The position numbers and the translations under genes were made by a program. Of a stretch of DNA of 64,000 nt, positions 35,233-61,719 are shown piece by piece (positions within the stretch are counted from its first letter, which is position 1; each line of letters starts with the position of its first letter). The stretch lies in NCBI RefSeq assembly GCF_006345805.1, contig NC_043010.1:32178001-32242000 (forward strand), read 5' to 3'. The stretch comes from Octopus sinensis (Eukaryota). The notes beneath the pieces were generated by a model, which was not told the DNA's origin, ran no database searches, and saw only the letters and a list, made by a program, of their open reading frames with translations.

Positions 35233-35459
35233 GTATGTATGTATGTATGTATGTATGTATGTATGTATGAGTGGATGTATGTATGTATGTATGTATGTAA
35301 GTATGTATGTATGTATGTATATATATATATATGTATGTATTAATCAAAAATATATTAATCAAGTATATATTAATCACCTACACCACTAAATGGTATATAC
35401 AGGTGCTTACAATTATCAAGTATTCACCCTGAATTTATGTATGTATATATATATATATA

Positions 35460-40237: not shown

Positions 40238-40644
40238 AACACACATACATATCCTTTTCTCCTTTCTTTTCACTTTTTCTCTCTCTTTCACTTCATTCTT
40301 TTTTCCCTTCTCAATCTCATTGCGAACCAGATTGTGCCATCATTTTCAATCATTCTATTTCATTCCCTAGCTTTCCTTTGACCTCAAAATCATCATGTAA
40401 AACACTTATCTTATATTTGATATCATATTTTTCTTTGTCTTGCTTCTTGTAGTATTTTTTTTCTTTTTAACATGTTTATTTTTTGGCATATTCATCCTCA
40501 GCATGCACTTCTTTTTCTTTATATGTCTGTGCTTTTTCAAGCATGTGCATTTGATTGTTGAACTTCATGTAACTATGATTTTTGTCATCTCTTTGTTGCA
40601 TAGTCTTTCTTGTGTGTGAGTGTGTGTATGTGTGACCTTGAAGA

Positions 40645-40719
40645 GGTTTTGGGGGTCTGATGACATGCGATAAAGCTAAACCCTTTATGGGCAGGAAACC
40701 CAGGATAATCCCATAAACC
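40645..40719 (+). ncRNA. Type-I hammerhead ribozyme motif (degenerate stem III)
   Basis: Stem I ggttttgggggt/atcccataaacc; CTGATGA at 40657-40663; bulged stem II (tgc/gca, ataaag/ctttat); GAAA at 40695-40698; stem III A-CCCAGGA-T with a C.A mismatch; H17=A40707. Confidence 0.65.
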
Positions 40720-41253
40720 AGCCTTCCCCATTGAAATATTCACTGCTCTTCCTCTTAGAGTGTGCTTCATCTCTGGATTTATGTTTTCTACAAACAATAT
40801 ATATATTTATATATATATGCACACATATACGTGTATATATATGCACATATACATTTATGCATGTATGTACATCAATATTTTTTTTTCTTTGCCGTAAGGC
40901 ACAATTCCTAACACGCCAGTTGAATTCAATTCGTTTCCTAGTCGAGAGACACCTGTTGTGATGTCCTGTTATTATTATTATTATTATTGTTTTTTCGTAT
41001 TATTTTTATATTTATATTCATGTAACATCGTCCGTTTTTCCGTCCTTGTTTTGTATACATTCGAAACTTTTTGCCAAGGAATCTAATGCTGTTAGCTTGG
41101 GGCTGGCCAGATTGGAGCAATCTCAAGATTAATCAACCGAAATTGCGAGGATGATCTGGTTCTTGACTAAAGATTAAAGGCTTCGAATGACCCATCCATG
41201 TTTTTTGTATCGTCTTCTGGATGTTTTGCGTTCTTGTTCCATTTTGTATTTTC

Positions 41254-41308
<55 letters not shown>

Positions 41309-41311
<3 letters not shown>

Positions 41312-41702
41312 TATTTTATAAGCTTAAATCTTATAAGCAATAAATGTGCAATGACTAAATAAAATAGTCTAATAATGGGGCATATAAGCCCTTGATGGAA
41401 AAGCGTAGGTTTTCCCATATGTGTGGGACTCGAACCCACACCTCTTTGTTTTCATGCTACCATTACACTAGCACATCAACCTGCTACATTCCGTCAGATT
41501 TAAGAACTATAATTAGTTCATAGTGCTGTTTTTGTAAACAAACTTTCATGTGCTTTTATTGTGAAGGTATTTGTTAAGCAGTGTCGATTTTTACACTTCT
41601 GTAAGTAATAATAATAGTAAGGGCTTATATGTCCCATCATTAGACCATTTTCTTTAGTCATTGCTTGGTGATTGCTTATAAGCTTTAAACTTATAAATAC
41701 TA
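41309..41702. mobile_element. ~390-bp element with ~85-bp imperfect TIRs enclosing a tRNA-like sequence
   Basis: Arms at 41309-41393 and 41619-41702 (..gcaatgactaaa..atggggcatataagccctt / aagggcttatatgtcccat..tttagtcattgc). Minus strand 41417-41477 has A-box TAGTGTAATGG and B-box GGTTCGAGTCC. Confidence 0.8.
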
Positions 41703-42599
41703 TAATTATTATTTACAGAATAGTAAAAATTGATACTGCTTACAAAAACCTTCACCTCTCTCTCTTTCTCTCCCCCCCTCTCTCTCTCTCTTTCTCTCCC
41801 CCTCTCTCTCTCTCTTTCTCTCTCTCTCTCTTTCTCTCTCTCTCTTTCTCTCTCTCTCTATATATATATATATCGAGAGAGAGGGAGAGAGAAAGGCAGT
41901 TTTCATCTATTAAACTCTGTCAGTTAACCTGTCACTATAGTAGGAAACAATTTTGTATGATGGTGCAGAGTGGAATCAAAATGAGAATTACATCGTTGTT
42001 AAGCAAACTTCTTAATCACACAAAACATTTAGTACTAATTGCAATAGGCATGACAGTTGAAATATTTGTTGGAAAATAATTTGGAAGTTGTCATGGGCAT
42101 GCCTTTCCAAAGTGACAAAATAAATAATCTACTTTCTTGTGATTTGAACTAAAAAAAAAAAAAGATAGTGATCAGAGGAAAGCATTTATTTAATCACACT
42201 ACCACTTCTGAATGTAACAAACAGAAACTATTAGATTTGTTCATTTGTTTAAGCTGAGCGTGAGCCAAATACTGCAAAACATTCTGTTGTTTTGTACCAG
42301 CTAATGTGCAAAAATAATAAATTCTCTGATTTTTTTCTGCTTTTTCCCCTCTATTACTGTTCCACTGTTCCACATGTTTATTTGCCAATAAACCACTTTG
42401 ATATTTTCCAGTAACATGATATATATATGTTATTCCACTCTGTTTTAACTCTTTTTTAGTTTTTAAAATACAAAGTTGTAATTGCATTAGTCAAGCTAAT
42501 ATTCATCTTTTAAAAATATTTCCAGGTAATGGGAACTTATTTTTACATATTTAAGTTTAAGTTAATGTAAACATAACTTTATGTATAAGGAATTCATTT

Positions 42600-42775
42600 C
42601 ACCACCACATAGCTTCAAGTTTAATCCAACTGCATGGTACCTTTTACAAGTCTCTTCTACAATAGCCTCAGTTGATAGAAGCCTTGTGAGTGAAATTTTG
42701 CTGATGAAAATGGCCAGAATTCTGTTGTTAAGGCCACAGTTTTTTTTTGTGCATATGTGCATGTGTTTGTGTTAA
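42600..42775 (-). mobile_element. Degenerate SINE family B fragment
   Basis: ccacatagcttcaagtttaatccaactgcatggtacc...tcttctacaatagcctc..gccttgtgagtgaaatttt; homologous to other family B copies. The strand call is uncertain because the motif reads on + as written. Confidence 0.5.
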
Positions 42776-42875
42776 ACCAGGTGACATAATTCATCTCCTG
42801 GTTTAAAACCACCAGTTTGTCTATTTCTGTGTACCCTAAGTGGAGCCTTTTCTGATGTAATTATTCAGGCCAAGC

Positions 42876-43072
42876 AAGGCAGTGAGCTGGCAGGTGAAAT
42901 GCTTAGTGGTATTTTGTTTGTCTTTACATTCTGGGTTCAAGTTCCGTCGAGGTCAACTTTGCCTTCCATCTTTTCCGAGTTTATAAATTAAGTACCAGTT
43001 GCATACTGGGGTCGATCTAATTGACTGGTCCCCTCCCCCAAAATTTTAAGCCATGTGCCTAGAGTAGAAAAA
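42876..43072 (+). mobile_element. tRNA-derived SINE (family A) with 15-bp TSD
   Basis: aggcagtgagctggcag...ggttcaagttccg...; TSD aattattcaggccaa at 42859-42873 and 43073-43087. Confidence 0.85.
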
Positions 43073-43806
43073 AATTATTCAGGCCAAATTACTAGTATGA
43101 GGAAAACTTCCACCTTTTTCCCCATTTGTCTTTGAAACCCTGAAAAAGTCAAGAGTACCATCCTAACTTTATAGGATAATCCACTCAAAGGAGTTTCTTT
43201 CTGTTTTTTGATGACATCTTTGAGTATTGTATGATGAATGCTTATATTTCATTGTATTTTAAATCACTTTCTTTTATATAATGTTATGATGATTTTAGTG
43301 AGCTAAATGTTCATTGAGGAAAATATTCCTAAGTATAAGGAAATATATTTTTATTTTACTTCAGTAAACATACCCATACACACACACACACACACACACA
43401 CGTATATTTATTGTATGCATGTTTAGGCATGTATACACACAAATTCCTTTATATATAGATATATTTTTTTAATATTAGATCTTTAAAGAAATTCAAAAAG
43501 AAGTTTTTTAAGAAGATATGGAAAAAAGTCAATAAAACATGGATATTTCGTAGAAAATGTGAAGCAAATAGCAACAAACATCTTTTATTATCATAGGCAA
43601 ACTCACACTTCCGGTGATTTCTTAACAAAGACTACTGCTATATTCTATAAAGGATATTCATTTCTTTGACATGTATGCATATGTGTATTTATGTGTGTGT
43701 GTGTGCGTGTGTGTGTGTATATACACATATATATATATATATCTGTGTATGTGTGTGTATGCATAAATATATATTTATATACATACATGTATGTGTGTGT
43801 ATGCAC

Positions 43807-43859
<53 letters not shown>

Positions 43860-44496
43860 GTGATTGTAGATATATATATGTATGCATATGTGTCCTTTAA
43901 ACATTTTCTGTCCAATATTCAGCAGAATAATTCTTTTCATAAGTCTTTTTCTTTTTGATATTTCCATCTCTTATGGCTTTGAAATTTTCAAATGAAATGA
44001 TTTGATTTAGGAAATTTTTTTTCTGTAACTTCTAAGGAAATCAACTCCTTTTATCAGCAACAATCATACTAAAAAAATCCGCTTTCTGTGTATATCTCCT
44101 TCAGTTCTACTTCAATATTCTTTTGTGGCTTTTTGTATATTTGTTTAGTTTTGCTTTTGAAAATCAGGTTTTATTTATTCAATTAATTATTATTATATTA
44201 GAAATTTCTCATAACCATCATTTTCATCATCATATTTCCATCATCATCGTCATGATCATCATCATTATCATCACCACCACAACTACCAGCCATCATTGAC
44301 ATTGTTGTCGTTATTATCATTGTCACCACTGCAATCACCATTGTCCTCCTCCTTCTCACCACCATTAATCATTATTGATATTAGTGTTCTTTCCCTGCAC
44401 AACTGAATGCAACTATTTTTGTTTTGTTATCATATAGAATCTATTCTCCAATAATAAGTGTATGTGCAGTGCCTTGTAGCATTATTCTCTGTATGT

Positions 44497-44545
<49 letters not shown>

Positions 44546-44732
44546 GTATAAATGCATGTGTATGTCTTGGGATTCTTGTTATGCATAAGTCTACATCTTT
44601 TTCATTCAGTTGTAAGACACCTGTTGTTATCTAATCTTTCAGTAGACAACTATTTGTCTTGCAATCTTTCAGAATTTATCACTCTTCATCTATCTTTTGT
44701 CTATCTACCTGTCCCTCTCTTTCTCTCTCTCT

Positions 44733-44792
<60 letters not shown>

Positions 44793-44865
44793 GCATGTAT
44801 GTAATGCAGAAGAAATGTGAAGGCTAGAGAGGAATGAAGCTAGTATGCTCCACTGGATGTACAAT

Positions 44866-45441
44866 GTGGTTCTAGGAACATTTATGCCACAGGAAAACTT
44901 GCCGCAGGAAACTTTGCCATATAGGAAATTTTGCCGTAAGATAATATCGCCATATAGATAATTTTGAAGATATGGCAGGCAACCTGATTAGAGAAATTGC
45001 AGTTCTGAAAAAAATTGCTTTATATATATATATATGTGTGTGTTTTTCATACTTCCGTTTTAGATCTAACTAATTTTTTTGTTTTCTTTTTGCTCTTTGT
45101 AAACGTTATCATATTTATTACTTTTTTATTTAAGCAGAATTTTTTTTTGAAAACATATTTTAGGTTGCTTTATTTTTGCACCCACTGTAGCTTTGCCATA
45201 ATAATATAATAAATATGTTGGTTGAAGCAATTATATACCAAGGGATTAGTTCATCTTTTTTGGGAGCAGGGAATTGTCTTATGGCAAAATTTCCTATGTG
45301 GCGAGCTTGCCTATGGCAAAATTTTCTATGTGGCGAGCTTGCCTATGGCAAAATTTTCTATGCAGTGAACCTATGGCCAAAACTCCTAAGGCGAATTTTC
45401 CTGCAGCAAAAATATTTGCAGTAAAATTTTTGGATACAGTG
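44866..45441. mobile_element. Non-autonomous foldback-like DNA element with inverted arrays of ~15-bp subterminal repeats (second copy ~46787-47360)
   Basis: The left end has repeats GGAAA(A)(C/T)TTGCC(G/A); the right end has inverted TATGGCAAAATTT(T)CT / GGCGAATTTTCC arrays. Exact ends are uncertain. Confidence 0.65.
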
Positions 45442-45474
45442 CGATATCAGTGTATATGTACAAGTGAGTCCTAC

Positions 45475-46010
45475 TATATTGAGAGAAAATTAGGTATGAG
45501 AAAAATTAGATGCAGTGTGCATTAGAGAAGACTCTGCTGGCTTGGTCATGTGATGTGTATGGATGTAGACAGTTACATAAAGAAATGCTGATCACTTGAT
45601 GTCAGCGGAACTTGTAGAAGAGTTTCATTCCCAAGAAGATGTGGAATGAAATATTGACGGTTAATTTCAAGAGCCTTACAAAGGAGATGGCAAAGGATTG
45701 AGATATCTGGCACCTTGCTGTACTCAGAAAGACCTGTTCACCACAGCAGAATTGATATCCTTAGCCACTTTGGTTAATGCTCTCCTCCCAGCTGAGGAGA
45801 TTTTTGTCTTGCAAGTTACTTGGTGACCCTGTCAGTGTTGGTGCCACATAAAAGCATCCAGTACACTCTGTAAAGTGGTTGGTGTTAAGAAGGGCATCCA
45901 GCAGTAGAAACCAAGCCAAAACACATGCCTGGGACCTGGTACAGCTCTCCAGCTTGCCAACTCTAGCTAGCCAGCTCCAACCCATGTCAACATAGAAAAT
46001 AATGTTAAAT
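45475..46010 (+). mobile_element. RTE LINE 3' end plus 3'UTR fragment (duplicated at ~47394-47930)
   Basis: LREKLGMRKIRCSVH*RRLCWLGHVMCMD-like translation followed by the RTE 3'UTR motif. Confidence 0.75.
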
Positions 46011-46210
46011 GTATGTGTGTGTGTGTGTGTGCACACACACAAACACACACACACACAGTTTCCTGTACTTATATATACACCATTGTGCTTAGAAAATGTT
46101 ACTGCAACTACAATATCCTTACGTATCTCACGTCTGTTTTCATTCCTCCACTTCACTCTGTATTTCATATCTTCTCTATCGTAACTATTACTTGAAAATT
46201 TTCTCACACA

Positions 46211-46258
46211 GTCTCTGATGAAGGGATATATAAAATATCCTGGAAACAGCTGTAAGAC
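46211..46258 (+). ncRNA. Minimal type-I hammerhead ribozyme (PLE-type), copy 1
   Basis: GTCT-CTGATGA-a[GGGATAT ataaa ATATCCT]g-GAA-ACAGCTGT-A|AGAC. Stem I is GTCT/AGAC, stem II is 7 bp, and stem III is the palindrome ACAGCTGT. Predicted cleavage after A46254 (GUA). Confidence 0.85.
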
Positions 46259-46336
46259 CTTCTCTTTTTAAATGTTCTGAAAACTATTCACAGCCTTGGA
46301 ATTTTTTATCTCATTGTGTTAATTTATATATGTATG

Positions 46337-46372
<36 letters not shown>

Positions 46373-46409
46373 GTGTGTGTGTGTGTGTGTGTGTATGTTT
46401 GTATGTGTA

Positions 46410-46457
<48 letters not shown>

Positions 46458-46648
46458 GTATAAATGCATGTGTATGTCTTGGGATTCTTGTTATGCATAA
46501 GTCTACATCTTTTTCATTCAGTTGTAAGACACCTGTTGTTATCTAATCTTTCAGTAGACAACTATTTGTCTTGCAATCTTTCAGAATTTATCACTCTTCA
46601 TCTATCTTTTGTCTATCTACCTGTCCCTCTCTTTCTCTCTCTCTCTCC

Positions 46649-46713
<65 letters not shown>

Positions 46714-48131
46714 GCATGTATGTAATGCAGAAGAAATGTGAAGGCTAGAGAGGAATGAAGCTAGTATGCTCCACTGGATGTACAATGTGGTTCTAGGAAC
46801 ATTTATGCCACAGGAAAACTTGCCGCAGGAAACTTTGCCATATAGGAAATTTTGCCGTAAGATAATATCGCCATATAGATAATTTTGAAGATATGGCAGG
46901 CAACCTGATTAGAGAAATTGCAGTTCTGAAAAAAATTGCTTTATATATATATATATGTGTGTTTTTCATACTTCCGTTTTAGATCTAACTAATTTTTTTG
47001 TTTTCTTTTTGCTCTTTGTAAACGTTATCATATTTATTACTTTTTTATTTAAGCAGAATTTTTTTTTGAAAACATATTTTAGGTTGCTTTATTTTTGCAC
47101 CCACTGTAGCTTTGCCATAATAATATAATAAATATGTTGGTTGAAGCAATTATATACCAAGGGATTAGTTCATCTTTTTTGGGAGCAGGGAATTGTCTTA
47201 TGGCAAAATTTCCTATGTGGCGAGCTTGCCTATGGCAAAATTTTCTATGTGGCGAGCTTGCCTATGGCAAAATTTTCTATGCAGTGAACCTATGGCCAAA
47301 ACTCCTAAGGCGAATTTTCCTGCAGCAAAAATATTTGCAGTAAAATTTTTGGATACAGTGCGATATCAGTGTATATGTACAATTGAGTGCTACTATATTG
47401 AGAGAAAATTAGGTATGAGAAAAATTAGATGCAGTGTGCATTAGAGAAGACTCTGCTGGCTTGGTCATGTGATGTGTATGGATGTAGACAGTTACATAAA
47501 GAAATGCTGATCACTTGATGTCAGCGGAACTTGTAGAAGAGTTTCATTCCCAAGAAGATGTGGAATGAAATATTGACGGTTAATTTCAAGAGCCTTACAA
47601 AGGAGATGGCAAAGGATTGAGATATCTGGCACCTTGCTGTACTCAGAAAGACCTGTTCACCACAGCAGAATTGATATCCTTAGCCACTTTGGTTAATGCT
47701 CTCCTCCCAGCTGAGGAGATTTTTGTCTTGCAAGTTACTTGGTGACCCTGTCAGTGTTGGTGCCACATAAAAGCATCCAGTACACTCTGTAAAGTGGTTG
47801 GTGTTAAGAAGGGCATCCAGCAGTAGAAACCAAGCCAAAACACATGCCTGGGACCTGGTACAGCTCTCCAGCTTGCCAACTCTAGCTAGCCAGCTCCAAC
47901 CCATGTCAACATAGAAAATAATGTTAAATGTATGTGTGTGTGTGTGTGTGCACACACACAAACACACACACACACACAGTTTCCTGTACTTATATATACA
48001 CCATTGTGCTTAGAAAATGTTACTGCAACTACAATATCCTTACGTATCTCACGTCTGTTTTCATTCCTCCACTTCACTCTGTATTTCATATCTTCTCTAT
48101 CGTAACTATTACTTGAAAATTTTCTCACACA

Positions 48132-48179
48132 GTCTCTGATGAAGGGATATATAAAATATCCTGGAAACAGCTGTAAGAC
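48132..48179 (+). ncRNA. Minimal type-I hammerhead ribozyme (PLE-type), copy 2
   Basis: Identical to 46211-46258, 1921 bp downstream in the duplicated unit. Confidence 0.85.
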
Positions 48180-48257
48180 CTTCTCTTTTTAAATGTTCTG
48201 AAAACTATTCACAGCCTTGGAATTTTTTATCTCATTGTGTTAATTTATATATGTATG

Positions 48258-48259
<2 letters not shown>

Positions 48260-48318
<59 letters not shown>

Positions 48319-48585
48319 TTGTATGTGTATATATATATATATATATATATAAGAATAATTTTATAACTTCGTTCAACTGAAAAGCATTTCTGTTAAACCA
48401 AAGAACAAAAATGAAAATAGGACTGCAACAGGAAGTGTTCATGTGACACCAAAGTGAAAGAAGAAATAAACTGAAAGGTATAATGAATAAGCGGTCCAAT
48501 CGGTCAAAACAGCTTTGTAATTTAGTTGTTTTGACCGATTGGAGCATTTATTCATTATACCTTTCAATTTTATATATATATATAT

Positions 48586-48621
<36 letters not shown>

Positions 48622-48894
48622 GTGTGTGTGTGTGTGTGTGTGTATGTTTGTATGTGTATATATATATATATATATATATAAGAATAATTTTATAACTTCG
48701 TTCAACTGAAAAGCATTTCTGTTAAACCAAAGAACAAAAATGAAAATAGGACTGCAACAGGAAGTGTTCATGTGACACCAAAGTGAAAGAAGAAATAAAC
48801 TGAAAGGTATAATGAATAAGCGGTCCAATCGGTCAAAACAGCTTTGTAATTTAGTTGTTTTGACCGATTGGAGCATTTATTCATTATACCTTTC

Positions 48895-48905
<11 letters not shown>
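48260..48905. repeat. 329-bp tandem duplication, each unit with a ~95-nt hairpin
   Basis: 48351-48570 equals 48680-48899. Hairpins at 48472-48566 and 48801-48895 have ~43-bp arms with ~4 mismatches. Confidence 0.95.
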
Positions 48906-48937
<32 letters not shown>

Positions 48938-48941
<4 letters not shown>

Positions 48942-50200
48942 GAATGTACATTAAAGATTTCCCCTGATCCAGTTCTGATTATTGTAGGAAACGGAACTTG
49001 TACAGGTATAATCATACATGTCTCCACATGTCACTTTGTAATTTGCAGCTTTTGACTTGTATTTGTTTGTTTTTTATGGCTGCTGAAATGAATTAAGGTG
49101 TTATAACATAGGCAGCTCAATGCAGAACAGTGATCAGGTTCTTATACTTGAAAAGTCGTACACCAAAGAGACTTTCAATTATACGATATAGTCAAGCACT
49201 GGCATCACCAATCCAAATGTGTTTGGACATTGGTGGTAGCTGCTCCAATTCCTGGATGACCACATTCCGCCATTGATGACAACATCATCCATAAAGTAAA
49301 AGCCACCACTTTGGAGGATCACTGCATAACTATTCGGCAACTAGCCCAAAAAGTGAAGAGAATTATAGGGTCCATGGAAAAAATCCTTCATGACCATTTG
49401 CTCGTGCAGAAGTTATCTGCATGATGGATTCCCTGGATGCTCACACTTTTTCAGAAGAAGGTACGAGTCAATTGCTCCCAGGCTTTTTTGGCAATGTACC
49501 AAGAAAATGAGGAGGACTATTTTGTCAGACTTATCACACAGGATGAAACATGGGTCCATCACTATGACCTTGAGACTAAAGCCCAGTCAAAGTAATGAAA
49601 GCATGATAATTCATCACCTCCAAAGAAGGCTTGTGTCCAACCCTCAGCAGGCAAGGTGATGCTCACAGTCATTTGGGACGACCAACATGGAGTAGTGATG
49701 AGGAATTTTCTGGTACTGGACAACACAATCAACAGGACATATTATGCTTCTCTGCTTCAGAAATTATGGGACGCCATCAAAGCAGAGAGGCATGGCATGC
49801 TAACCAGAGTAGTCCACCTCCTCCAAGACAACACCCCAGTTCACAATGCACATGTTACACAGATGAAAACACATTCCTGCTGCTATGAAATCCTTCTTCA
49901 TCACCCTTACTCTCCTGACCTCACACCATCTGACTTCCACTTCTTTCCAACCATGAAATCTTTTTTGAAGGGGGAGCACTTTTACAGATGATGATGAACT
50001 TATTTCTGAGGTAAGGTTTTGGCTTCAGATGCAACCTACTGACTTCTACAGACAAGGTTTTCACAGCTGCATAAAGCTATGGGAGAAGTGTGTCACCATT
50101 GGTGGTGGCTATGCATTGAAGGGCTAATAATTATGCCAAGTTTTATTTATCCCAGTTCTTGGGAGATGGATCAGGGGAAATCTTTAATGAACACCTGTCA
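48938..50200 (+). mobile_element. Full-length mariner (DD34D), decayed
   Basis: TIR core cattaaagatttcccctgatcca at both ends. The transposase remnant includes WIPWMLT, ITQDETWVHHYD and LQDNTPVH...(34)...YSPDLTPSDFHFF. Confidence 0.92.
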
Positions 50201-50789
50201 TGTGTATATATATATATACTAGATGTATCCACCTTGATCCATTGGGTCATGAACATTCCTAGTTGAAAATATTGATGCATGGCAGGAATGGGAAAAGTAC
50301 CATTTTGAACTTCATGCAATTCTTAAATAATACAGTTCTCCTGCCTTTGGTGTGACAACATAAACATGGCCGAGTGTTTCCTCTTTGAAAACATTCAAAT
50401 TGCCTTCAGCATTTTTTCCTCACTTTCTTCTTTGCCATTCTTTGTTACTACTGTTCCAAGTGAAATGCATGAGTACTTTAGCATAATGTAATATTTTGCA
50501 AAGTCATCATCAATGCAAAATAAAAAGAATTCTGTCAATGTTGTTCTCATATGTCATTCATTAACAGCCATATATACATCCTCATTATTTCTGAGCAATA
50601 TTCTTTGTTTATCCGGTAGATGAACTTGCAGTCTCACTATTGCAGATGTTCTTTCAAGAAGTGAAAATCCTAATATGGATGCAACTGCTTCCGATGGTTC
50701 AATATACTTACCCATTAGATATTGACCAATTTTGTTGTCTTTATCTGAACAGCAGCTTGGTCATTTCCTTTCTGTGTGTACTTGATGAA

Positions 50790-51023
50790 ACCTATTTCTT
50801 TACTGCCCACAAGGGGCTAAACAGAGAGGGGACAAACAAGGACAGACAAAGGGATTAAGCCGATTACATCGACCCCAGTGCAAAACTGGTACTTTATTTA
50901 TCGACCCCGAAAGGATGAAAGGCAAAGTCGGCCTCGGCAGAATTTGAACTCAGAACATTACGACAGACGAAATACTGCTAAGTATTTCGCCCAGCACGCT
51001 AATGTTTCTGGCAGCTTGCTGCC
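50790..51023 (-). mobile_element. tRNA-derived SINE (family A) with 14-bp TSD
   Basis: Same family as 27963-28195; TSD tgtgtacttgatga at 50775-50788 and 51027-51040. Confidence 0.9.
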
Positions 51024-52029
51024 CTCTGTGTACTTGATGATATACTTAATTTACCTCACTGAGGCAATGATTTCAATGCTGCAAAGGTACAGCCCACTTA
51101 TTGTTGTTTTTTTTTCCATTCTTATGAGATTTAACTCCTCCCATTGCATCTGATCTTTGTCTATAAAGAGATAGCCTCTCTGTTTATCTGCCTTTTGGTT
51201 AAGATGATAAAGATTGATATTGTATTTTAAATACTAATTTTCCTCTTTAAGACAAACAAGTCAGATACCTGTGATTATCATAAAAATATCTCATAAAAAT
51301 AAAGGAAGAATTTCTTTCAGTTTAATGCACTCCAAAACTTACATAAATGATTGAGGGAACAATAAAAAAAAAAAGGTAAGAAAAAAAGGTCTGCTGGTGG
51401 CAGCTGCCTCTTTGAAGTGTCATCATTTTCAACTTGATTTTTTTTTCATAAAGCGGAAATGACTAATTTATTTGTAATCTTTATCATTTTAATCAAATGG
51501 CAGGAAAACAGACAGCCTTTGAGATTTTGCATAATATATATACACATAAAAGTATGTACACATATACCTACAAGTTTACCATTTTACCTTAAAACATTTA
51601 GTAGTTCTAACATATTTTGGCCAAAAATACCTCTTTTCAAATTATGGAAGAGAATAGGAGAAAGTCTGGTTTCATTTCTGCATCTGGAATGTATTTTCTC
51701 ATGTGTGTGTGTGTGTGCGTGTGCATGCACACATGCGTGCACGTGTGAGTGAGTGACTGAATGAGTGTGTTTGTGTGCACGCATGTGCATGCATGCACAC
51801 ACACAAATGATATTATTAATTAAAATCTATTTTTGCCAATTCTTTAGATCAGCACCGATTTAATTGAATTTCAATTGTTATGATTAATTTTACACTAATC
51901 AATTGTAATTAGCTTTAATTACACAGTCAAATATCACAGAGAATATCATATATTTAATGAATTGATGATTTGCTAAAACATCGTGAAATTTCAGTAAATC
52001 ACTAAAATTTTCAACTATATTGCTCTCTT

Positions 52030-52108
<79 letters not shown>

Positions 52109-52166
52109 GTATATATATACATGTACATATATATATATATATATATATATACATACATATATATAC

Positions 52167-52216
<50 letters not shown>

Positions 52217-52252
52217 ATATATATATATATACATGTATATATATATATATAG

Positions 52253-52309
<57 letters not shown>

Positions 52310-52313
<4 letters not shown>

Positions 52314-52683
52314 GGCAGTTTGTCTGTGCATGTTTCTGTGTGTCTGTTTTCTCGTACCCTCACCCTGACCACGGCTTTCAACCGATTCTGATGAAACTTG
52401 ACACACGCATAGCCCAATGTCATAATTCAAAACTAACGCAGCGAAAATTTTGAAAAGTTCCCCCAGTTCTGAAAAAAATCGATTAATTCGACATGGGGTC
52501 GAGAATAAAAAAAAACAAACCACAGACTGTCTAGGGGACGCAACTCAACCTTTTTTTACTCTCAAAAAAAAAATTACCATCATTTTTTTTCCATTTTTTT
52601 GCTATTTTTTGGCTATAACTCTCTAAAGATGCTTTATAGTTATTTCCCTTACAAACCTGAGCAACGCCGGGCGATACTGCTAG
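52310..52683 (+). mobile_element. Non-autonomous Helitron
   Basis: 5' (TA)n-aaacggcagtttgtctg with GTCT-type repeats; 3' GC hairpin cctgagc-aac-gccggg followed by CTAG|T at 52680-52683; no TSD. Confidence 0.85.
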
Positions 52684-52784
52684 TATATATATATATATAT
52701 ATATATATAAACACAATCAAAATATACAACAGGATATCAAGAAGTGATGCAGTACGACCGTTTCAAATGGCTCCATTTAATTGA

Positions 52785-54343
52785 ACAATGCAATCATTCA
52801 TCCACATACAGGGATGCTGTCAGAAAGGTGAGGATTGGCAATGAGTATAGCGATGATTTCAAGGTATAAGTAAGGGTTCGCCAAGGTTCATCATAGCCCT
52901 CCAGACAATAACAGAGAAATTTAAGACAGGCTGCTCCTGGGAGCTGATGACCTTGTTTTTAAAGCAAAATCCCTACCAGAACTAGAGAAATTTAAGCTGT
53001 GGAAACAAGGTTGAGAATCAAAAGGCATTAGCGATAACCTAGCAAAAACCAAAGCCCTTAGTAAGTAAGTAAGCAGAAAAATCACAAATTCCTTCAGGTA
53101 GATGGCCTTGCTCGATCTGTAGATAAAGCATAGGTAGAAAGATGTATCTGGCATAAGCTTTGGACACATAAAAGGTGCAGCAATATCAAAGGAAGTTTAA
53201 CTGGGAAAATAGTTCCTGTGTGTGGAAGATTCACAGGTACAGTAAACCCCCAAAATGTACAGAAAATAGACTCGATCAAATGCCAATGAGGTTTGCTAGA
53301 GGTAGTTGATAGCTTCTGTTATCTAGTTGATCAAGCCAGTAGCAGGGGTGGATGCTTCAAGGGCATAGCTGCAAGAATAAGAATAGCCTGGGCAAAGTTC
53401 AGTGCGCTCTTTCTTCGCTTGGCAACAAAGGGCCTCTCCCTCAGAATAAAAGGCAGACTGTATGATGCCTGTGTGCAAATGGCTATGCTACACAGCAATG
53501 AAACATGAGTGGTGACCATCGAGGATATATATATGCTTGAAAGAAACAAAGCTAGAATGCTTTGCTGAATGTGCAATGCCAGTGTACATGTACGACAGAG
53601 TGTAAGCATCTTAAGAGAAAAGTTGGGCATAAGAAGCATAAAATGTAGTGTGCAAGAGAGATGACTGCACTAGTATGGACAAGGACAGCTGTGTAAAAAA
53701 TTGCCAATATTTAGCTGTAGAGGGAACCTGTGAAAAAAGGTAGACCCAGGAAGGCATTGGAAGAGGTGGTGAAGCATGATCTTTGAACGTTGGGCCTCAC
53801 AGAAACAATGGCTGGTGATTGAGAGCTTTGAGTTGACCCATCAGGCCAAGTGGAATCATACTTGTGGCTGCTGCCTATTTCATGCAACCAGAACTCATGC
53901 TGCTGGCATGTAAATATCACCTTCAAGCGGTAGGCTCACAGAATCAACTGGCACTCGTGCTGGTGGCATATGAAAAGCACCTGCTGAGTGTTGGGCCTCA
54001 TGGAGGTAATGTGTCTGATGCTGGCTCATGTAACTGGTATCCATACTGGTGGCACATAAAAAGCACCTTTCAAGTGTTGGGCTTCATAGAGGCAATGACA
54101 AATGACCAAGACCTTTGGCAATATGCCATGCTTGAGAAGTAAGATCTATTGAGCCAAGTGAAATCGTAGTCCTGGCGAATATTAGTGTCACTCAACTGGC
54201 ATCCATGTCTGTGGCACATAAAAAACCCATTACACTCTTGGAGTGATTGGCATTAGAAAAAGCATCCAGCCACAGAAACCATGCCAAATCAGACTGGAGT
54301 CTGATGAAGCTAGCATGGACAACGGACGTTAAATGATGATGAT
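52785..54343 (+). mobile_element. 5'-truncated RTE LINE (RT C-terminal half to 3' tail)
   Basis: VRQGS, ITEKFKTGCSWE..DDLV, EVVDSFCYL..ARIRIAWAKF..RLYDACVQMAMLHSNET, GRPRKALEE; the 3'UTR ends gacgttaaatgatgatgat. Confidence 0.9.
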
Positions 54344-54606
54344 ATACACACACACACACACACACACATATATTTAATATTATAATTATTAGGGAAGATT
54401 AATTCCGAGTACACAGGAATGACATATTCAAATTAAAGGTACTAAAGTGAACTTCTCTCAATATTTTATTCATATATATAAAAGTAGTTTTAGAGACAGA
54501 ACCACTATCCACTCAATCAACATTGAAAGATATTATACCCGACTGAGCCATAAAATATTAAATATGATACTATATTTGTTTAGAATCCCATACTTTCTAT
54601 TTTAAA

Positions 54607-54703
54607 GACTACACATGTTTCATGACAGTATGTTGGTATTGTTGAGATATAAGGTCTCTAGTTTCAATACACAGTTAGATCGAAGTACTCCAATCTTCAG
54701 GTC
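54607..54703 (-). ncRNA. Type-I hammerhead ribozyme with extended stem II
   Basis: Minus strand: GAC-CTGAAGA-t[tggagta...gtattg..gaga/tctc..caatac...tactgtca]t-GAA-ACATGTGT-A|GTC. Confidence 0.8.
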
Positions 54704-55583
54704 AGGATTCTACACATTTATTACTCTACATCCTATATGACTCTATGATAATTGAAATTATTTGACTACAAATCGTTAACATAATTTTACTTGACAAATT
54801 AATGACTAAAAATAAAAATAATTAATGAACCTTAAAAATTTAAGGAATTAAAGAGAATAAAAAATATGAAATAAAAATAATGAACAAAATGAATGTTAAC
54901 TTATCTATTTGGGGTTCCCTCCCAACGAAAATTAATCATGGCTACATCTTACAAATAACGTACAGTCCACATGTAAGAGAGGTAATTCTAATTATTATTA
55001 GAGAGTTCTTAGAATGTATTTATTACTTTATATATTTACCGTGTATGAACAGTACACATTAAACTACCCTATAGTTAACATAATACAGTCAGGTGATTCG
55101 GAAACAAATGTATCATGGGAACTGGCCAATCCCCTCACTAGCTATTCACTCAACCCACATGCCACCACCAACAATCAACCAGGCCTCCTGACACTCAAAC
55201 AGTAAGTTCCTTCTTTAGACCCCCAATTCAAATATTTTGGGATACATAAAAATTTTTCTTTTTTTATGTTTATATAAATTCTATATTATTTAATATCTAT
55301 TACTTATACTATTATTCTTAAAAATTAGACATTACATTTTAGTTAAATTTCTAAATTTAAGTTTAAAAATTTCAACTAAAAAAGTGTAATGTACAACTGA
55401 AAATTTAATTAAAAATCTAAAATATCCGAAATTAACCAAATAATATCTTATATTTTTGTATGACTAAGTACTACATTTTAGTTATTTTAAATAATGGTAT
55501 ATAATTATAACTTTTATCTAAAAAAATGACTGAATTTTAATCCTTTAAAATTAGATTTTGTTTATTTACTAAAGCATCCAATC

Positions 55584-56060
55584 TTATCTCATCGTATTAA
55601 TTAAACAATTAAGCTTATGTTTGCATTTAATTTTTCTTTCATTCTGGGTATTAAGCAATGTTGTTTTGGCCTTTAAGATTTCCATAAATTCGTGAGTACA
55701 CAACAGACAGAACTTATTCCCTATTCTATATGATTTAGTTTTCCATATTATCTCCTACCTTAGATTGTATTTAATTTCTTTAGATTTTAGACGCCAAATA
55801 TATTCATTTAAGCCTGTCGAGTTCATTAATTTTTTATTTTTAAAAGAGTACAAATGCTGCGCTATTCTTTGCTTAATTTTATTCGATGTAGATCCAATTT
55901 ATGGTGTATATGAATTTTCCCCATTATTGTTATTATTACCTTCCCTTTGACCATTCCTATCTTCATTTAAAGACACCACACATTTGTATACTACCTCCTT
56001 TAAGTTACATTTATTATTAAGTTACAATTATTTTTATCCCTACAATTACAGTTTGTTGAG
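55584..56060 (-). pseudogene. PLE GIY-YIG endonuclease remnant
   Basis: CNCRDKNNC..NKCNLKEVVYKCVV...*IGSTSNKIKQRIAQHLYSFKN..NSTGLNEYIWRLK..*EII..CLLCTHE..LLN..E..CKHK; stops replace the YIG Tyr and a conserved Trp. Confidence 0.88.
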
Positions 56061-56309
56061 TTATTACCATTATTATTGGGATATTTATTTAGTTTATTGA
56101 GATAAAATTTATTCAGCTTATATTTATCTAATGATGAGATAATATTACCTACATTACTAGTAGTCGAATATCAAACTTAACATCAGTTAAAACTTGACAT
56201 CAAACAACTAAGTAAAGAAATAATAAAACAGACATATGAGTAAACCAAAGAAACAATTGGTAGCATTTGTATGCAACATAAACCACAAAACTATAAAAAA
56301 ATATTGGTT

Positions 56310-56490
56310 TTGACACAAAGCCAGCAAGTTTGGGGAAGGGAGTAACATGATTACATCGACCCCAGTGCTGAACAGGTACATATTTTGTTGACCCCCAAAT
56401 TGGTGGAATTTGAATGCAGAGCGTAAAGATGGACAAAATGCAACGAAGCATTTTACCCACCATGCTAAAGATTCTACCAGCTTGCCACCT
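56310..56490 (-). mobile_element. Degenerate SINE (family A)
   Basis: Reverse complement gives aggtggcaagctggtagaatctttagcatg...ctgcattcaaattccacc...cactggggtcgatgtaatc. Confidence 0.7.
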
Positions 56491-57534
56491 ATTTAAAACA
56501 AATATTATACTGAGGAATAAGCAGTATCAACAACAACAGGTGCACTACAGCTTATGCTACAATAGCAACTTCTACTAATATACACTCCCTTTGCTAGAAA
56601 ATCACCCCTCAAAGGACCACACAAAACAGCAGGAACACAAATCCTTCCATCTTGACCATCATTATATGGAAATCTAAAAAACTGAAAACCCTCAGAGCAC
56701 AGCAAATTTACAGACATACACATGTATTTTCTGGAGGAATCATTGCACTCCCCAACATCTTCAGCTATTCCTACCTTGAGTCAGCAATGAGCCTCTATGC
56801 GGTCACTCAACTTGCAAGAAATAGCTCCCTGCATTTGTTGAAATGGCCACTATGGATAATGCATTCCCAGCTCCCTGCACACAGAAAATAGACCGGATGG
56901 TCCAACTAGACTGTCTCCATTGTGAACACCACCAGAATCTGTGCCCTATCCTAAAAGTATGCAGTAATAAACTGGACATGTCACACTGCAGCCCCATATG
57001 ATCTATCACAGTCTGTCAGAGTGTGTGCAACCTACAAGTGTAAAAATATATACTAGACAGCAGAGAGAGGGTACTATGTATAGACTTTGAAGCTGCCCCC
57101 TGTGTGATTGCTCATGACACACTAAAGTATAGTCCTCAGTTGGAGGGAGACTTAGTGATGGATCTGTAAGGAGGTGATGGATCCGTAATGAGCAAGGTCA
57201 GTGTTCAGCTTACTACCTCTATTTTCTAGGACTAATTGATTTAGAATTGACTTGAAGTGATAGGGACAACAATAATAGCTAGTAATACAACATCAATAAA
57301 TAGTAACAAGAACAACAGCAATGATTTTATCATCGTTTGTTGTTGTTCATATTAATATGTTTATTGTTGATGTTATTGTTGTTAGCGTCATTAAGTTTTA
57401 TTGCTGTTATTGTTAGTGTCAGAATGTTTTAATGTTGTTGCTGATATGTTCAAGAAAGTGACTTGATAGCTAATATTTTACAGAAATGACAAAAGGAAAT
57501 GTTATCATCTTTCAGTGATCAACTCTTACATCAT

Positions 57535-57678
57535 GTATGATGATGGTGATGATGATGACAGTAATAATAGTAATAATAATAATAATGATAATAATAATAA
57601 TAATAATAACGATAATGATAATAATAATGATGATAATTTCATTTATTTGCCATAAGTGCGAAGGATGAAGGGGATAAA

Positions 57679-57730
<52 letters not shown>

Positions 57731-57780
57731 TAATAATAATGGTAGTAATGATGATGATGATGATGATGATGATGACCTGT
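57535..57780. repeat. (GAT)n/(AAT)n microsatellites
   Basis: Direct reading. Confidence 0.95.
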
Positions 57781-58136
57781 AGTAATGTTGCTGCTATGGC
57801 TGATGTTAGTGGTAGTGGTGATGGTAGTGATGGTATTAGTAATAACAGTTGCAGTAGAAGCAGTATTTAGTTTTATTTATAACAAAATCTCCTGCAGGGA
57901 AAGTTAAAAGGTATCCATCACACCAGTCTAGCCTGACCTGACCTGACACCTCCTTCCCTATCTCTTAAATTCTGCCAATGTCTTCAGTAAGTGACATTTC
58001 ACTTGTATTGGTTACAATTCCAAATGAACACACTGTACAATCTATAATTTATAAGGCTGCTTCCTGAGACCTCATCTAGTACTTACACATATAGGTATAT
58101 TGCAAACTTACTCATAATGCACATACACTCACATGT

Positions 58137-58199
<63 letters not shown>

Positions 58200-58355
58200 T
58201 ATATATGTATATATGTATGCATGTATATATATATATGTATATATATATATGTAAGTATATATATTATGTATATATATATATATATGTATATATATGTATA
58301 TATATATATGTGTGTGTGTATATATGTGTGTGTGTATATGTGTATATGTATGTAT

Positions 58356-58663
58356 ATCATCTTTCTCCTTTCTCCAACCAGTCCATCAGATGTAGTTACA
58401 CATCGCTGGTCACAATGCGTTCGCATTGTTTTAGCCTTTGAATGACGCCACCCCGCTGGCTAAGCGAGCTGGCCAACAGAAGAAAGAGTGGGAGAAAGAG
58501 TGGTGAAAGAGTACAGCAGGGATCACCACCCCCTGCTGGAGCCTCGTGGAGCTTTTAGGTGTTTTCGCTCAATAAACACTCACAACGCTCGGTCTGGGAA
58601 TCGAAACCGCGATCCTACAACCGCGAGTCCGCTGCCCTAACCATTGGGCCATTGCACCTCCAC
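58356..58663 (-). mobile_element. tRNA-derived SINE (third family)
   Basis: Reverse complement begins gtggaggtgcaatggcccaatggttagggcagcggactcgcggttgtaggatcgcggtttcgattccc (A and B boxes); CpG-rich; flanked by TA/TG repeats. Confidence 0.88.
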
Positions 58664-58830
58664 GTGTATGTATATATGTTTGTATATATATATATGTGTG
58701 TATATATATGTATATGTATGTATATGTATATATGCATGTATGTGTATATATGGTATATCAAATTATAGTTTGTTATACCTGTAAGTTGAAATATATAATG
58801 ATAGATAAAATTATAAATGGGGGATAGGTG

Positions 58831-58924
58831 GATCTGAAGATTGGGGTTGTATATAAGGGGAGGTTCTGTAAGAGACTGGGTGCCTCAAGAACATAGCATA
58901 CAACCTCATGAAAGACGTGTAGTC
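58831..58924 (+). ncRNA. Type-I hammerhead ribozyme with extended stem II
   Basis: GAT-CTGAAGA-t[TGGGGTTGTAT...ATACAACCTCA]t-GAA-AGACGTGT-A|GTC. Stem II is 11 bp; stem III is one substitution from the palindrome ACACGTGT. Confidence 0.8.
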
Positions 58925-59151
58925 GACAACTTTGAATAGTAAGTTTTAAATATAATATTCTATAACATGGTTGAATTTATATTCTGATTTGATGAATTTA
59001 TGGGGATTTTTGTCTCTAATGATACTTTGATATATATGTATTTATTTATTGAGAATAATTCAACTTAATATTCTTAACTTGAATATCTCATCCCTGTGAT
59101 GCTGATATTCCCTTATTATTATAAAAAATATATATGTACATATATATATAT

Positions 59152-59187
<36 letters not shown>

Positions 59188-59255
59188 GGTGTATATATAT
59201 ATGTATATATATATGTGTGTGTGTATATATATATATATGTATATATACATATATG

Positions 59256-59286
<31 letters not shown>

Positions 59287-59341
59287 GTATATATAGTTGT
59301 ATATATATATATGTATATATATATATGTATATATATAGTTG

Positions 59342-59372
<31 letters not shown>

Positions 59373-59392
59373 GTACATATATATATATGTAC

Positions 59393-59423
<31 letters not shown>

Positions 59424-59442
59424 TATATCTATATATATATAT

Positions 59443-59473
<31 letters not shown>

Positions 59474-60581
59474 CACATATATATATGTCTTAGAGGAAAA
59501 ATCAAAACTAATGCTGAACGAGTCATTTAGAATATTTAATTAGGGTAAGGTGAATTTGAAGTCTGACAGCCATTTTTGGGATAACCCAAGCAGTAGATTA
59601 GTACGTCCATGCACTTGGTATTCCATCATCAGAGACAGGGCATGAATATTTTAGACAGGGAAAAATTTACAGTTTATTCTAAACAACTTTTAAGTCCACT
59701 CAAAAAGCTCCCACTATATTATTTAATAACACGTTCGATTCTTCTGTTCTTCTCCACCATCTCCCTCCTCCTTTGCCTCCTCCTCATCATCCTCATCATT
59801 ATTGCCATCACCATCATTGCTATCATTACAGTCGTCAATATCACTAAATTTCCATCACTATCATCATCATCATCATCATCATCAACATCATCATCATCAT
59901 CATCAGAACCACTACCCTTACTGCTATCACTACCTGTGCTCTCACCATCACCACCACCACCACCACCACAAACATCACTATTAATATCAATAGATTTCTT
60001 AATCTGATGTTGACATTTTGTTATCATGCTGGCTTGTCACTCCAAAATGGTAATGTGCAACTGTGAAGGTGAGTGCAGCAGTGCAGGTGGCAGTATGAGT
60101 GCAGCAGTGCAGATGACAGTGTAAATGCTGCAGTAATATATTTTGTGCTTTTTAATTTACTATCTAGTCTCTTTGATCTGTAGCATCACAACAGCAGCAC
60201 ATTGAATAGTTTATCTTCTACCATGGCCTTCTCTGTATGTAGTACTCTATTGTTCAGAATTAACTCACTGTGTACATTATGTTTCCATTCAAATAGTTAT
60301 GGACACCAGCAGAGCAAGATAGTTGTTGTGACAGGGTGTAATATCATGTTGAACTAAGTGTCTCTTGTCTAATGATAAGCATACAAATTTTAGTCTGTTT
60401 CTACACATAATATGACCTCAACGTGACAATTTTAATTTTGGTGTTAGTTAATATTAGATTTGAAAACAAATTAAGTGATCAGATTATTTCAGGAGACTGC
60501 AAGAACAAAAGTAGAAAAAAGATTACTTACCAACTCTTGTGGGTTTCTGGTGTTCACCTAGAACACCCATCGTTTATGTAG

Positions 60582-60737
60582 GGCATAGGAGTGACTGTGT
60601 GGTAAGATGTTTGCTTCCCAACCACATGATTCTAGGTTGTCCCATTGTGTGACACTTTGGCCAAGAGTCTTCTATTATGGCCCCAGCCCAACAAAAGTTT
60701 TGTGAGTAGATTTGGTAGGTGGAAACTGAAAGAAGCC

Positions 60738-60745
<8 letters not shown>
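60582..60745 (+). mobile_element. SINE family B, 5' part
   Basis: ggcataggagtgactgtgtggtaagatgtttgcttcccaaccacatg...ggaaactgaaagaagccc, running into (TA)n. Confidence 0.85.
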
Positions 60746-60785
<40 letters not shown>

Positions 60786-60794
60786 TATATATAT

Positions 60795-60829
<35 letters not shown>

Positions 60830-60860
60830 TATTAATAATAATAATAATAATAATAATGAT

Positions 60861-60921
<61 letters not shown>

Positions 60922-61173
60922 TGAGGGAATATTATTCCAAACTTACAGGGAAAAATTCAATTTAGAAATACTAAATCAAATTTCACAAAAATATAATATA
61001 TATATATATATAAATTAGAAAAAAGACACCTTTTATCAATTCAATAATGAAGAATTAAATTATACCATTTAGAAAAATTACATATTATAGAAAGATTAAA
61101 TATAAGATAAAACATATAACAATGATTAATTAATGTGCGAAATAATAAATAAACATGTATATATTTGGTAGAA

Positions 61174-61283
61174 TAATGACACATGTTTCGTGGCTATATT
61201 TAAGAAATGATAATAGTAATAATAGTAGTAGTAGTAGTAGTAGTAAAATCACTTCATTATAAATATAGCCACTCTTCAGGTTA
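61174..61283 (-). ncRNA. Type-I hammerhead ribozyme with microsatellite in loop II
   Basis: Minus strand: TAAC-CTGAAGA-[GTGGCTATATTTA...(CTA)n...TAAATATAGCCAC]-GAA-ACATGTGT-C|ATTA. Stem II is a perfect 13 bp, the triplet is GUC, and the first pair of stem I is a C.A mismatch. Confidence 0.82.
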
Positions 61284-61614
61284 AAGATAAAAAGAATAAA
61301 ATAATTAATTAGATAAATTAATAAATATATGTAAATAATCTTGTAAAATACTAAATATCTTAGCAAGTATATTCTTGTTTAAATTTTAAAAAATAGAATA
61401 AAAAATAAGATACAATTAATTAAAATATTTAAAACATATATATATATATATATTATTCAAAGAAATTCCAACTCTGTTTTTTATGTTTTATTTATATTCT
61501 TTATAATATTAATGTAGAATATAGAATATAGAGTATAAATAATATATATATAGTAAAATGAAATGAAGTATTGATTGTCTTATTGAATAGATAAAATATT
61601 GAATATAAAATATT

Positions 61615-61661
61615 TAGGGACTAGTATACTTTCTTGCATTATAGCAATCTTCAAGGTTCTA
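61615..61661 (-). ncRNA. Minimal type-I hammerhead motif, decayed
   Basis: Minus strand: tagaacc-TTGAAGA-TTGC tataat GCAA-GAA-AGTATACT-A|gtcccta. Stem III is a perfect palindrome; C3 is altered and stem I is imperfect. Confidence 0.6.
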
Positions 61662-61719
61662 GTTTGTGACAGGAGTGTTTCAACACACACACACACACAT
61701 ATATATATAATCTTCTATT

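Follow-up and report, generated by a model that had tools for sequence, protein, structure and literature searches.

A cluster of hammerhead motifs attributed to Penelope-like elements in the genome of Octopus sinensis

Described hammerheads and the octopus locus

Hammerhead ribozymes of Penelope-like elements (PLEs) have published precedent (PMC4209133, PMC8557442, PMC11167929). Published descriptions already cover their palindromic stem III, a U.U at the stem II base and an example from Octopus. The role of these hammerheads is unsettled (PMC8557442, PMC7761336, PMC11167929). We analysed a 64,000-nucleotide stretch of the Octopus sinensis genome (NC_043010.1, positions 32,178,001 to 32,242,000), hereafter called the window. 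Seven type-I hammerhead motifs lie in a 21-kb part of it. Almost certainly, these are PLE hammerheads, located at the 3' ends (pseudo-long terminal repeats, pLTRs) of six PLE families. The window adds nothing new in kind. Two structural variants, a long domain II and an extra core nucleotide, stand out. Positions within motifs are given in hammerhead numbering (for example, 15.2/16.2 and 10.1/11.1).

Five of the six families resemble PLEs of the Hydra clade (PMC8557442 section 11, files S1 and S2). Shared features are a GIY-YIG endonuclease (EN) at the C terminus with CxCX5C, CxxC and CxH motifs, (TA)n targets, and a type-I hammerhead in the 3' pLTR with a palindromic stem III and a loop of 0–2 nt. 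The Hydra-clade table also often shows a U.U at the stem II base and a U where the RNA is cut. The supplement of the same paper includes a Hydra-clade element with a hammerhead, Hydra-1_Obim, from Octopus bimaculoides. This bears on a question raised by an earlier, sequence-only reading of the window: whether such families had been described in cephalopods. By eye, the Hydra-1_Obim motif is matched by none of the five Hydra-type window families. File S2 has 26 Hydra rows, in which loop II measures 3–10 nt, whereas domain II spans 69–83 nt in window families 4, 5 and 6. The longest loops in that file, 29 and 35 nt, belong to spike-moss PLE-X elements.

Metazoan minimal PLE hammerheads (Cervera and de la Pena 2014, PMC4209133) are likewise dispersed in their thousands, mostly solitary and divided among many families, with few inside full elements. 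A short helix I, a palindromic helix III, an extra nucleotide before stem II and opposite-strand pairs 100–700 bp apart are also shared. However, G10.1-C11.1 is conserved there and helix II is 7–8 bp, whereas five of the six window families show a wobble or 1x1 mismatch at that position. Many of the motifs here have a long domain II. Family 7 has the EN linker (CX2-5CxxC) and CCHH motif of Neptune/Nematis-type PLEs (PMC8557442), a likeness that does not tell Neptune from Nematis.

Metazoan non-long terminal repeat retrozymes (PMC7229834) also carry type-I hammerheads in short AT-rich repeats, and an axolotl family has U.U at the base of stem II. Unlike the window motifs, which are solitary or inverted 3' ends of reverse transcriptase (RT)-encoding elements, they form head-to-tail arrays with canonical loop 1–loop 2 contacts and abundant circles. 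The Rfam model Hammerhead_1 (RF00163) has the same type-I topology and core but scores none of the window motifs. For the giant squid, 235 Hammerhead_1 matches are on record (PMC6962438). Our literature searches listed no study devoted to octopus hammerheads, and the available part of a 2026 octopus repeat annotation (PMC13282606) does not mention them.

Motifs, families and parent elements

The sequence-only reading had placed seven hammerhead motifs in the window, and we confirmed the coordinates and strand of each. A relaxed type-I descriptor matched the window five times. In 200 local, block-wise, dinucleotide-preserving shuffles it matched 0.08 times on average and never more than once. 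With a stricter descriptor there were three matches, against 0.12 in shuffles. Motifs 40645 and 61615 fail the relaxed descriptor, the former at a bulged stem II and the latter at a broken stem I. An Rfam scan of the window (E<=1) returned no hammerhead family among the 120 matches listed. At the gathering score, Rfam had no hammerhead match in six loci with intact relatives. Motifs 46211 and 48132 are a single insertion within a 1.9-kb tandem duplication, the copies of which are 98.8% identical. Because one motif was doubled by this local duplication, the seven motifs correspond to six insertion events. The duplication may be real or an assembly artefact.

Two descriptive claims of the earlier reading held in part. 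CUGANGA cores were described at all seven sites; 61615 lacks one and reads CUUGAAGA, as does family 7. A dimer-type palindromic stem III is evident in ACAGCTGT (two copies) and AGTATACT, whereas ACATGTGT, AGACGTGT and ACCCAGGAT are not true palindromes in the window. Judged by their relatives, the latter are decayed forms of ACACGTGT and ACCCAGGGT. The core halves are 69–83 nt apart in three window motifs, and five of the seven window copies are damaged.

Each motif belongs to a dispersed family (families 1, 2, 4, 5, 6 and 7; Table 1). First-look candidates in the 2.72-Gb genome numbered 1845, 2196, 289, 193, 2574 and 1243, respectively, counts that are lower bounds and not copy numbers. For each family 40 candidates were scored and 25–30 were fetched, chosen for likeness to the window copy, giving 155 loci in total (L numbers denote fetched loci, including others besides these). 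Family majority forms have a full core, a stem I of 3–5 bp and a perfectly palindromic stem III. The CUGANGA/GAAA/UH core is the majority form in families 1, 2, 4, 5 and 6, and is intact in 7/25, 20/25, 22/30, 18/25 and 22/25 of their sampled copies. Core, stem I and stem III are all intact in 1/25 (family 1), 19/25 (2), 16/30 (4), 9/25 (5), 11/25 (6) and 14/25 (7).

We compared 42 stem I and stem III pairs between the window copies and their family majorities. Watson-Crick pairing was found in both for 32 pairs; eight were weak only in the window and none showed the reverse. The remaining two, one G.U and one unpaired, were alike in window copy and majority. By this comparison of sequences, the imperfect palindromes of the window are mutated perfect ones. 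In the five families having CpG, these positions were off the majority at 13–29%, compared with 3–7% for other flank positions.

Stem covariation had been named as a check by the sequence-only reading. Across eight families (the six of the window and two from a protein search), pairing in stems I and III is well above permuted. Watson-Crick pairs make up 30/32 in stem I and 23/23 in stem III, versus 14.4 and 11.6 with permuted 3' strands, a contrast that is inflated by kinship between families and by motifs picked by eye and does not yield clean probabilities. In a 10-sequence alignment of families 4 and 5 with intermediates, 91.7% of cells are paired in a stem II structure drawn from those same sequences. 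Five of its 11 stem II pairs differ on both sides, and its covariation score is higher than in all 500 shuffles. As in a type-I hammerhead, the modelled fold comprises three helices and opens at stem I, and its stems show compensatory changes.

The earlier proposal of several diverged, hammerhead-bearing PLE families is borne out. GIY-YIG EN was found upstream in some copies of all six, with RT remnants for families 4/5; all are broken. The family 4 link is present in the window and in 8/29 other EN-found loci, where the downstream end is family 4-like and on the same strand. A family 5 end is downstream of EN, on the same strand, in 4/29 loci. Family 6 has a same-strand EN upstream in 5/30 loci and an inverted PLE protein in 4/30. 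For family 7, an EN with a CX4CxxC linker and CCHH lies ~230 nt upstream in L286 and L287, and three more loci were found by coordinates. In family 2, EN is found at an inversion junction in one of ten long copies (L282, E 7e-14), and forward EN-end remnants were read by eye in L283 and L277. Family 1 has EN directly upstream in 1/25 loci (L093), and its 3' end is fused to the start of a Hydra open reading frame (ORF) in a set of near-identical loci. The start of the L099 ORF resembles, by eye, the published Hydra-1_Obim protein. On unplaced contigs (L098–L102, L104 and L105), the fusion is a derivative with an internal deletion and lies within a larger repeated block.

In an EN tree, families 1, 2, 4, 5 and 6 fall on the Hydra side and family 7 on the Neptune side (93/96 support). 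The window remnant has the Hydra-clade EN pattern (C-terminal, with CxCX5C, CxxC and CxH and no CCHH), and L282 retains remnants of CxxC and CxH. L160, in which a family 5-like end follows downstream, has DKT in place of DKG; the region is missing in the other families. A C-terminal EN with the CX2-5CxxC linker and CCHH of the Neptune/Nematis type is present in L287 and in the sister L268/L291. An intact Neptune-type sister of family 7 has a 775-aa RT-EN ORF (GxKF, DKG, RVT_1, GIY-YIG), a canonical core and a homologous 3' end. Compared with this sister, family 7 has one more U in the core and a stem III that is 2 nt longer. Family 7-like EN matches (80–84% identical, among 150 scored) have open frames of at most 232 aa, and a search with 17 nt for longer copies of the family matched its own locus only. 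An intact Hydra family (L216–L218) has 727-aa ORFs with a hammerhead on both sides. A pLTR-flanked partial tandem with two hammerheads was seen in L216–L218, but in none of the six window families. Pfam returned no relevant family for three Hydra-type ORFs and was therefore unusable for classing them. A Naiad origin was rejected: the ENs here are C-terminal, and Naiads are without canonical hammerheads (PMC8557442).

Such motifs are abundant. Exact genome-wide patterns matched 13,434 motifs with 45–75 nt between core halves and 2,411 with 8–38 nt, compared with nine and nine in reversed controls; the two patterns differ in the stem III sets allowed and leave stems I and II out of the match. 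Both spacings together give over 15,000 matches. In the long-spacing class, a Hydra-type EN remnant accompanied two of four inverted pairs sampled. Rfam Hammerhead_1 placed seven above the gathering score among 74 candidates scored genome-wide, and so badly undercounts hammerheads in such genomes. These seven matches lie at C16:25146363-25146839 and five other places, two being 431 bp apart on one strand. By sequence, they are candidates for canonical hammerheads or true retrozymes.

Proposed mechanism and alternatives

In all 14 sequences folded, the predicted monomer stem III probability was at most 0.09. Predicted stem III self-duplexes reach -7 to -12 kcal/mol for intact 8–9-nt palindromes, -4.8 for the 6-nt palindrome of the sister and -4 to -6 kcal/mol in four damaged window copies. 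Hence, stem III is predicted to be stable only between two molecules, as in dimer-type hammerheads. The modelled behaviour fits the dimer model of PMC4209133, in which a single motif was uncleaved and dimers cleaved weakly.

A possible sequence of events is as follows. Transcription across a pLTR-ORF-pLTR tandem would join two motifs in one RNA, and the two copies would pair through palindromic stem III. Cleavage after NUH would trim the precursor RNA, weakly or with the element protein. Reverse transcription would start from the 3' end at nicks rich in AT; its products would mostly be short 3' ends, many of them accompanied by an inverted partial copy. On the basis of the folding, PMC4209133 and PMC11167929, the motifs probably serve in living elements to trim a tandem precursor RNA, weakly or with help from the protein.

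Overall, we consider it highly probable that the window holds minimal type-I motifs in the pLTRs of five families with Hydra-type EN and one of Neptune type, mostly as decayed, truncated copies by (TA)n, with dimer or protein-aided cleavage when intact. Taken separately, and judged by the models, it is probable that intact family members cleave as dimers or with protein assistance. Activity of the window copies is quite another matter, and has little likelihood. Isolated copies in the window are likely to be inert passengers; only the identical pair 46211/48132 would be able to dimerise in cis, if co-transcribed. Self-cleaved or circular RNA, suggested by the sequence-only reading, is doubtful for these copies because five of the seven are damaged and they are isolated. 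Parts of families 6 and 7 are represented in four contig sets matched to 60930-61700. Because they carry no ends, strand or level, these contigs bear neither way on expression or cleavage.

Several observations weigh against this reading. Canonical G10.1-C11.1 is absent in five of the six families, and the core of family 7 contains an additional base. Core conservation had been another check named by the earlier reading; within families it does not clearly exceed that of the flanks. Core/flank mismatch rates for the six families are 0.076/0.074, 0.018/0.036, 0.027/0.056, 0.044/0.049, 0.012/0.031 and 0.023/0.014. This parity fits neutral decay of dead copies and gives no sign of post-insertion selection. 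In the 10-sequence alignment, stem II pairs changed on both sides (five versus 3.7; 100/500 shuffles) are not significant alone. The EN link is one locus for family 1 and an inversion for family 2, and no intact ORF was found for the six window families, in a search aimed at family 7 only. The clade calls were made with elements of this genome and published motifs, not published reference sequences, and the tree is long-branched. Finally, in an anole PLE the hammerhead cut only with the element protein present, insertion in vitro proceeded without cleavage, and the cut site had no RNA-seq ends mapping to it (PMC11167929).

Some of these points would suit a role in binding, in which PLE-borne hammerhead-shaped RNAs serve RT recognition or RNA dimerisation and cleavage is absent or incidental. 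Family 7 has spread with its altered core: genome-wide there are at least 421 exact matches with the extra U versus four canonical. Insertions near C3 occur in saltern hammerheads, where they impaired cleavage (PMC3088659), and core mutants were without effect on PLE insertion in vitro (PMC11167929). The long structured domain II is also kept across subfamilies. However, at least eight unrelated families with differing stems retain NUH and the complete catalytic core, and published PLE hammerheads do cleave, weakly as dimers or with protein. We regard the binding explanation as improbable.

Retrozymes, offered by the sequence-only reading beside PLEs, did not stand up. These are short non-autonomous tandem repeats, cut to monomers and circularised, and are known in a mussel (PMC7229834). 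Consistent with them, most copies here are short and non-coding, L289 holds two 333-bp units, and the 25 family 7 loci sampled have a sharp 5' edge in common. However, this edge is partly that of the query itself, and longer copies exist (L139, L286, L287). All six families extend upstream into PLE EN. Among the 155 loci, a second copy on the same strand within 1.5 kb was found in two, no array of three or more was seen, and head-to-tail arrays of 150–450-bp non-coding units were absent. The doubled copies fetched are local duplications that contain (TA)n or unrelated flanking DNA. A retrozyme origin is very improbable.

The copies instead bear the marks of PLEs: 5' truncation, inverted partial copies and an optional tail. 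Inverted partial copies were found in 7/25 (family 2), 7/30 (4), 7/25 (5), 3/25 (6) and 6/25 (7) loci, and optional 3' tails of 30–40 nt in families 2 and 7. Inverted copies and tails are described for PLEs (PMC8557442, PMC11167929), unlike the arrays of retrozymes (PMC7229834). For family 1, an inverted count of 21/25 was inflated by the motif's own hairpin and left unused (14 partial opposite-strand versus 40 full matches). That copies end at microsatellites was also supported, with a dinucleotide repeat at the 3' end in 132/155 loci (15–25 of 25–30 per family).

It is highly implausible that the 21-kb cluster is a host-selected locus, with several ribozymes processing one transcript. Six insertions do fall in 21 kb, with none complete in the first 40 kb, and two independent pattern matches compare with ~0.4 expected per 64 kb (P ~0.05, post hoc). 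However, strands are mixed and five of the seven copies are damaged, often at CpG. Moreover, once the 155 loci had been reduced by the seven of the window and by 14 that overlap or are nearly identical, a scan of the remaining 134, in which the focal family was masked, found 17 further motifs in 383,782 bases of flank versus 0.35 in shuffles. This flank density of 2.8 per 64 kb equals the window's three, although the scanned flanks adjoin PLE insertions and may exceed the genome average. The motif density of the cluster is ordinary for PLE-adjacent DNA. Chance matches in AT-rich repetitive DNA are a negligible prospect: cores and stems are short and Rfam detects none, but the shuffled and reversed controls yielded far fewer matches and family majorities restore pairing.

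Structural variants and further features of the window

At the base of stem II, G10.1-C11.1 is found in family 6 only; the others have U.U, U.U, A.G, U.G and C.A. In relatives of family 2 the foot of stem II varies by subfamily (A.A, A.G, U.U, C.A, U.A), which suggests an unconstrained 1x1 loop beside the core. The domain II of families 4, 5 and 6 is predicted to fold as a long interrupted hairpin and, by pattern count, long domain II is the commonest hammerhead form. L216–L218 hammerheads, with 25 copies among the fetched loci, are at the opposite extreme, having a 2-bp stem II over an A.A mismatch. In family 7, 22/25 sampled copies have the altered core in place of CUGANGA. Neither the long domain II nor the extra U of family 7 was found in the literature examined; Lunse et al. 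2017, Arkhipova et al. 2017 and the supplements of PMC4209133 may cover both.

Tentatively, and with the odds against it, the long domain II, grown to an interrupted hairpin of 45–90 nt, could be a docking site for the element protein. It would then make a distinct class of protein-gated minimal hammerheads, with >13,000 intact-core copies missed by Rfam, and the Neptune-type family, in hundreds of copies with one extra core nucleotide beside a sister of normal core, would be a natural experiment showing cleavage to be dispensable for PLE spread. Test material is provided by two sister families, one with the canonical and one with the +1 core, and by many natural long-domain-II variants with compensatory changes.

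Table 1. Hammerhead motifs, parent-element remnants and the local duplication in the window
Feature	Positions	Strand	Details
Family 1 element 3' end, 5'-truncated, up to (TA)n	40641..40800	+	Matches reach 40825 including repeat
Family 1 hammerhead, Hydra-type parent	40652..40712	+	EN upstream in L093; predicted cut after 40707; stem I of 5 bp, extended distally; stem III of 4 bp, 1-nt loop; C-G broken at 15.2/16.2, stem II impaired
Tandem duplication (1.9 kb) with family 2 copy and unrelated repeats	44490..48351		44490-46432 / 46400-48351, 98.8%
Family 2 hammerhead, Hydra-type parent	46211..46258	+	Intact core; predicted cut after 46254; 4-bp stem I, 7-bp stem II over A.G mismatch, stem III perfect palindrome
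Family 2 hammerhead, identical second copy	48132..48179	+	Predicted cut after 48175
Family 4 hammerhead	54606..54704	-	72-nt domain II, U.U at base; predicted cut after 54610; stem III carries C>T change
Family 4 element 3' untranslated region	54705..55616	-	EN-to-hammerhead collinearity with L158, L159, L161, L168, L184
Hydra-type PLE GIY-YIG EN C-terminus, broken	55617..56100	-	tblastn E 5e-15 over 55617-56021; CxCX5C linker, CxxC, CxH present; stops and frameshift
Hydra-type hammerhead of family 5, the sister family of family 4	58831..58924	+	Predicted cut after 58921; 69-nt domain II, 11-bp stem over U.U; stem III broken at 15.2
Family 6 hammerhead, Hydra-type	61174..61283	-	Canonical G10.1-C11.1; predicted cut after 61178; 13-bp stem II, domain II of 83 nt; break in first pair of stem I, stem III C>T
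Family 7 element 3' end, 5'-truncated	61450..61684	-	Stops in (TA)n run adjoining family 6 copy
Family 7 hammerhead-like motif, Neptune-type parent	61617..61660	-	Predicted cut after 61622; +1 U in core, stem II of 3 bp, stem III palindromic; damage in stem I

At 40637, a reading as two nested hammerheads was rejected, the upstream sequence being absent from family 1. Elsewhere in the window, 3' ends of a seventh hammerhead-bearing family form an inverted pair (33250-33465) with (TA)n on either side. Both ends are cut within the ribozyme, with the CUGANGA half gone, and one keeps the optional tail. Broken pieces of a Hydra-type ORF comprise an EN end at 2825-3010 (+) and an N-terminal region at 3666-4295 (-); no hammerhead was found near them. 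At 35379-35460 (-) there is a short, ribozyme-less match to the 3' tail region of the long-domain-II family L296.

Near-perfect local tandem doublings flanked by microsatellites were seen at 48240-48932 of the window (329 bp) and in L287, L288 and L289 (1387, 504 and 333 bp, respectively). These may be slippage or assembly errors. A weak tRNA-like match below the gathering score, at 41415-41477 (-), lies within the inverted repeat 41309-41393 / 41619-41702 and is possibly the head of a short interspersed nuclear element. Tc1/mariner transposase remnants (Pfam DDE_3, HTH_Tnp_Tc3_2, HTH_48, Transposase_1) are located at 10274-11911, 15080-15732 and 49200-50100, and 220-bp inverted ends at 10274-10493 and 11688-11911.

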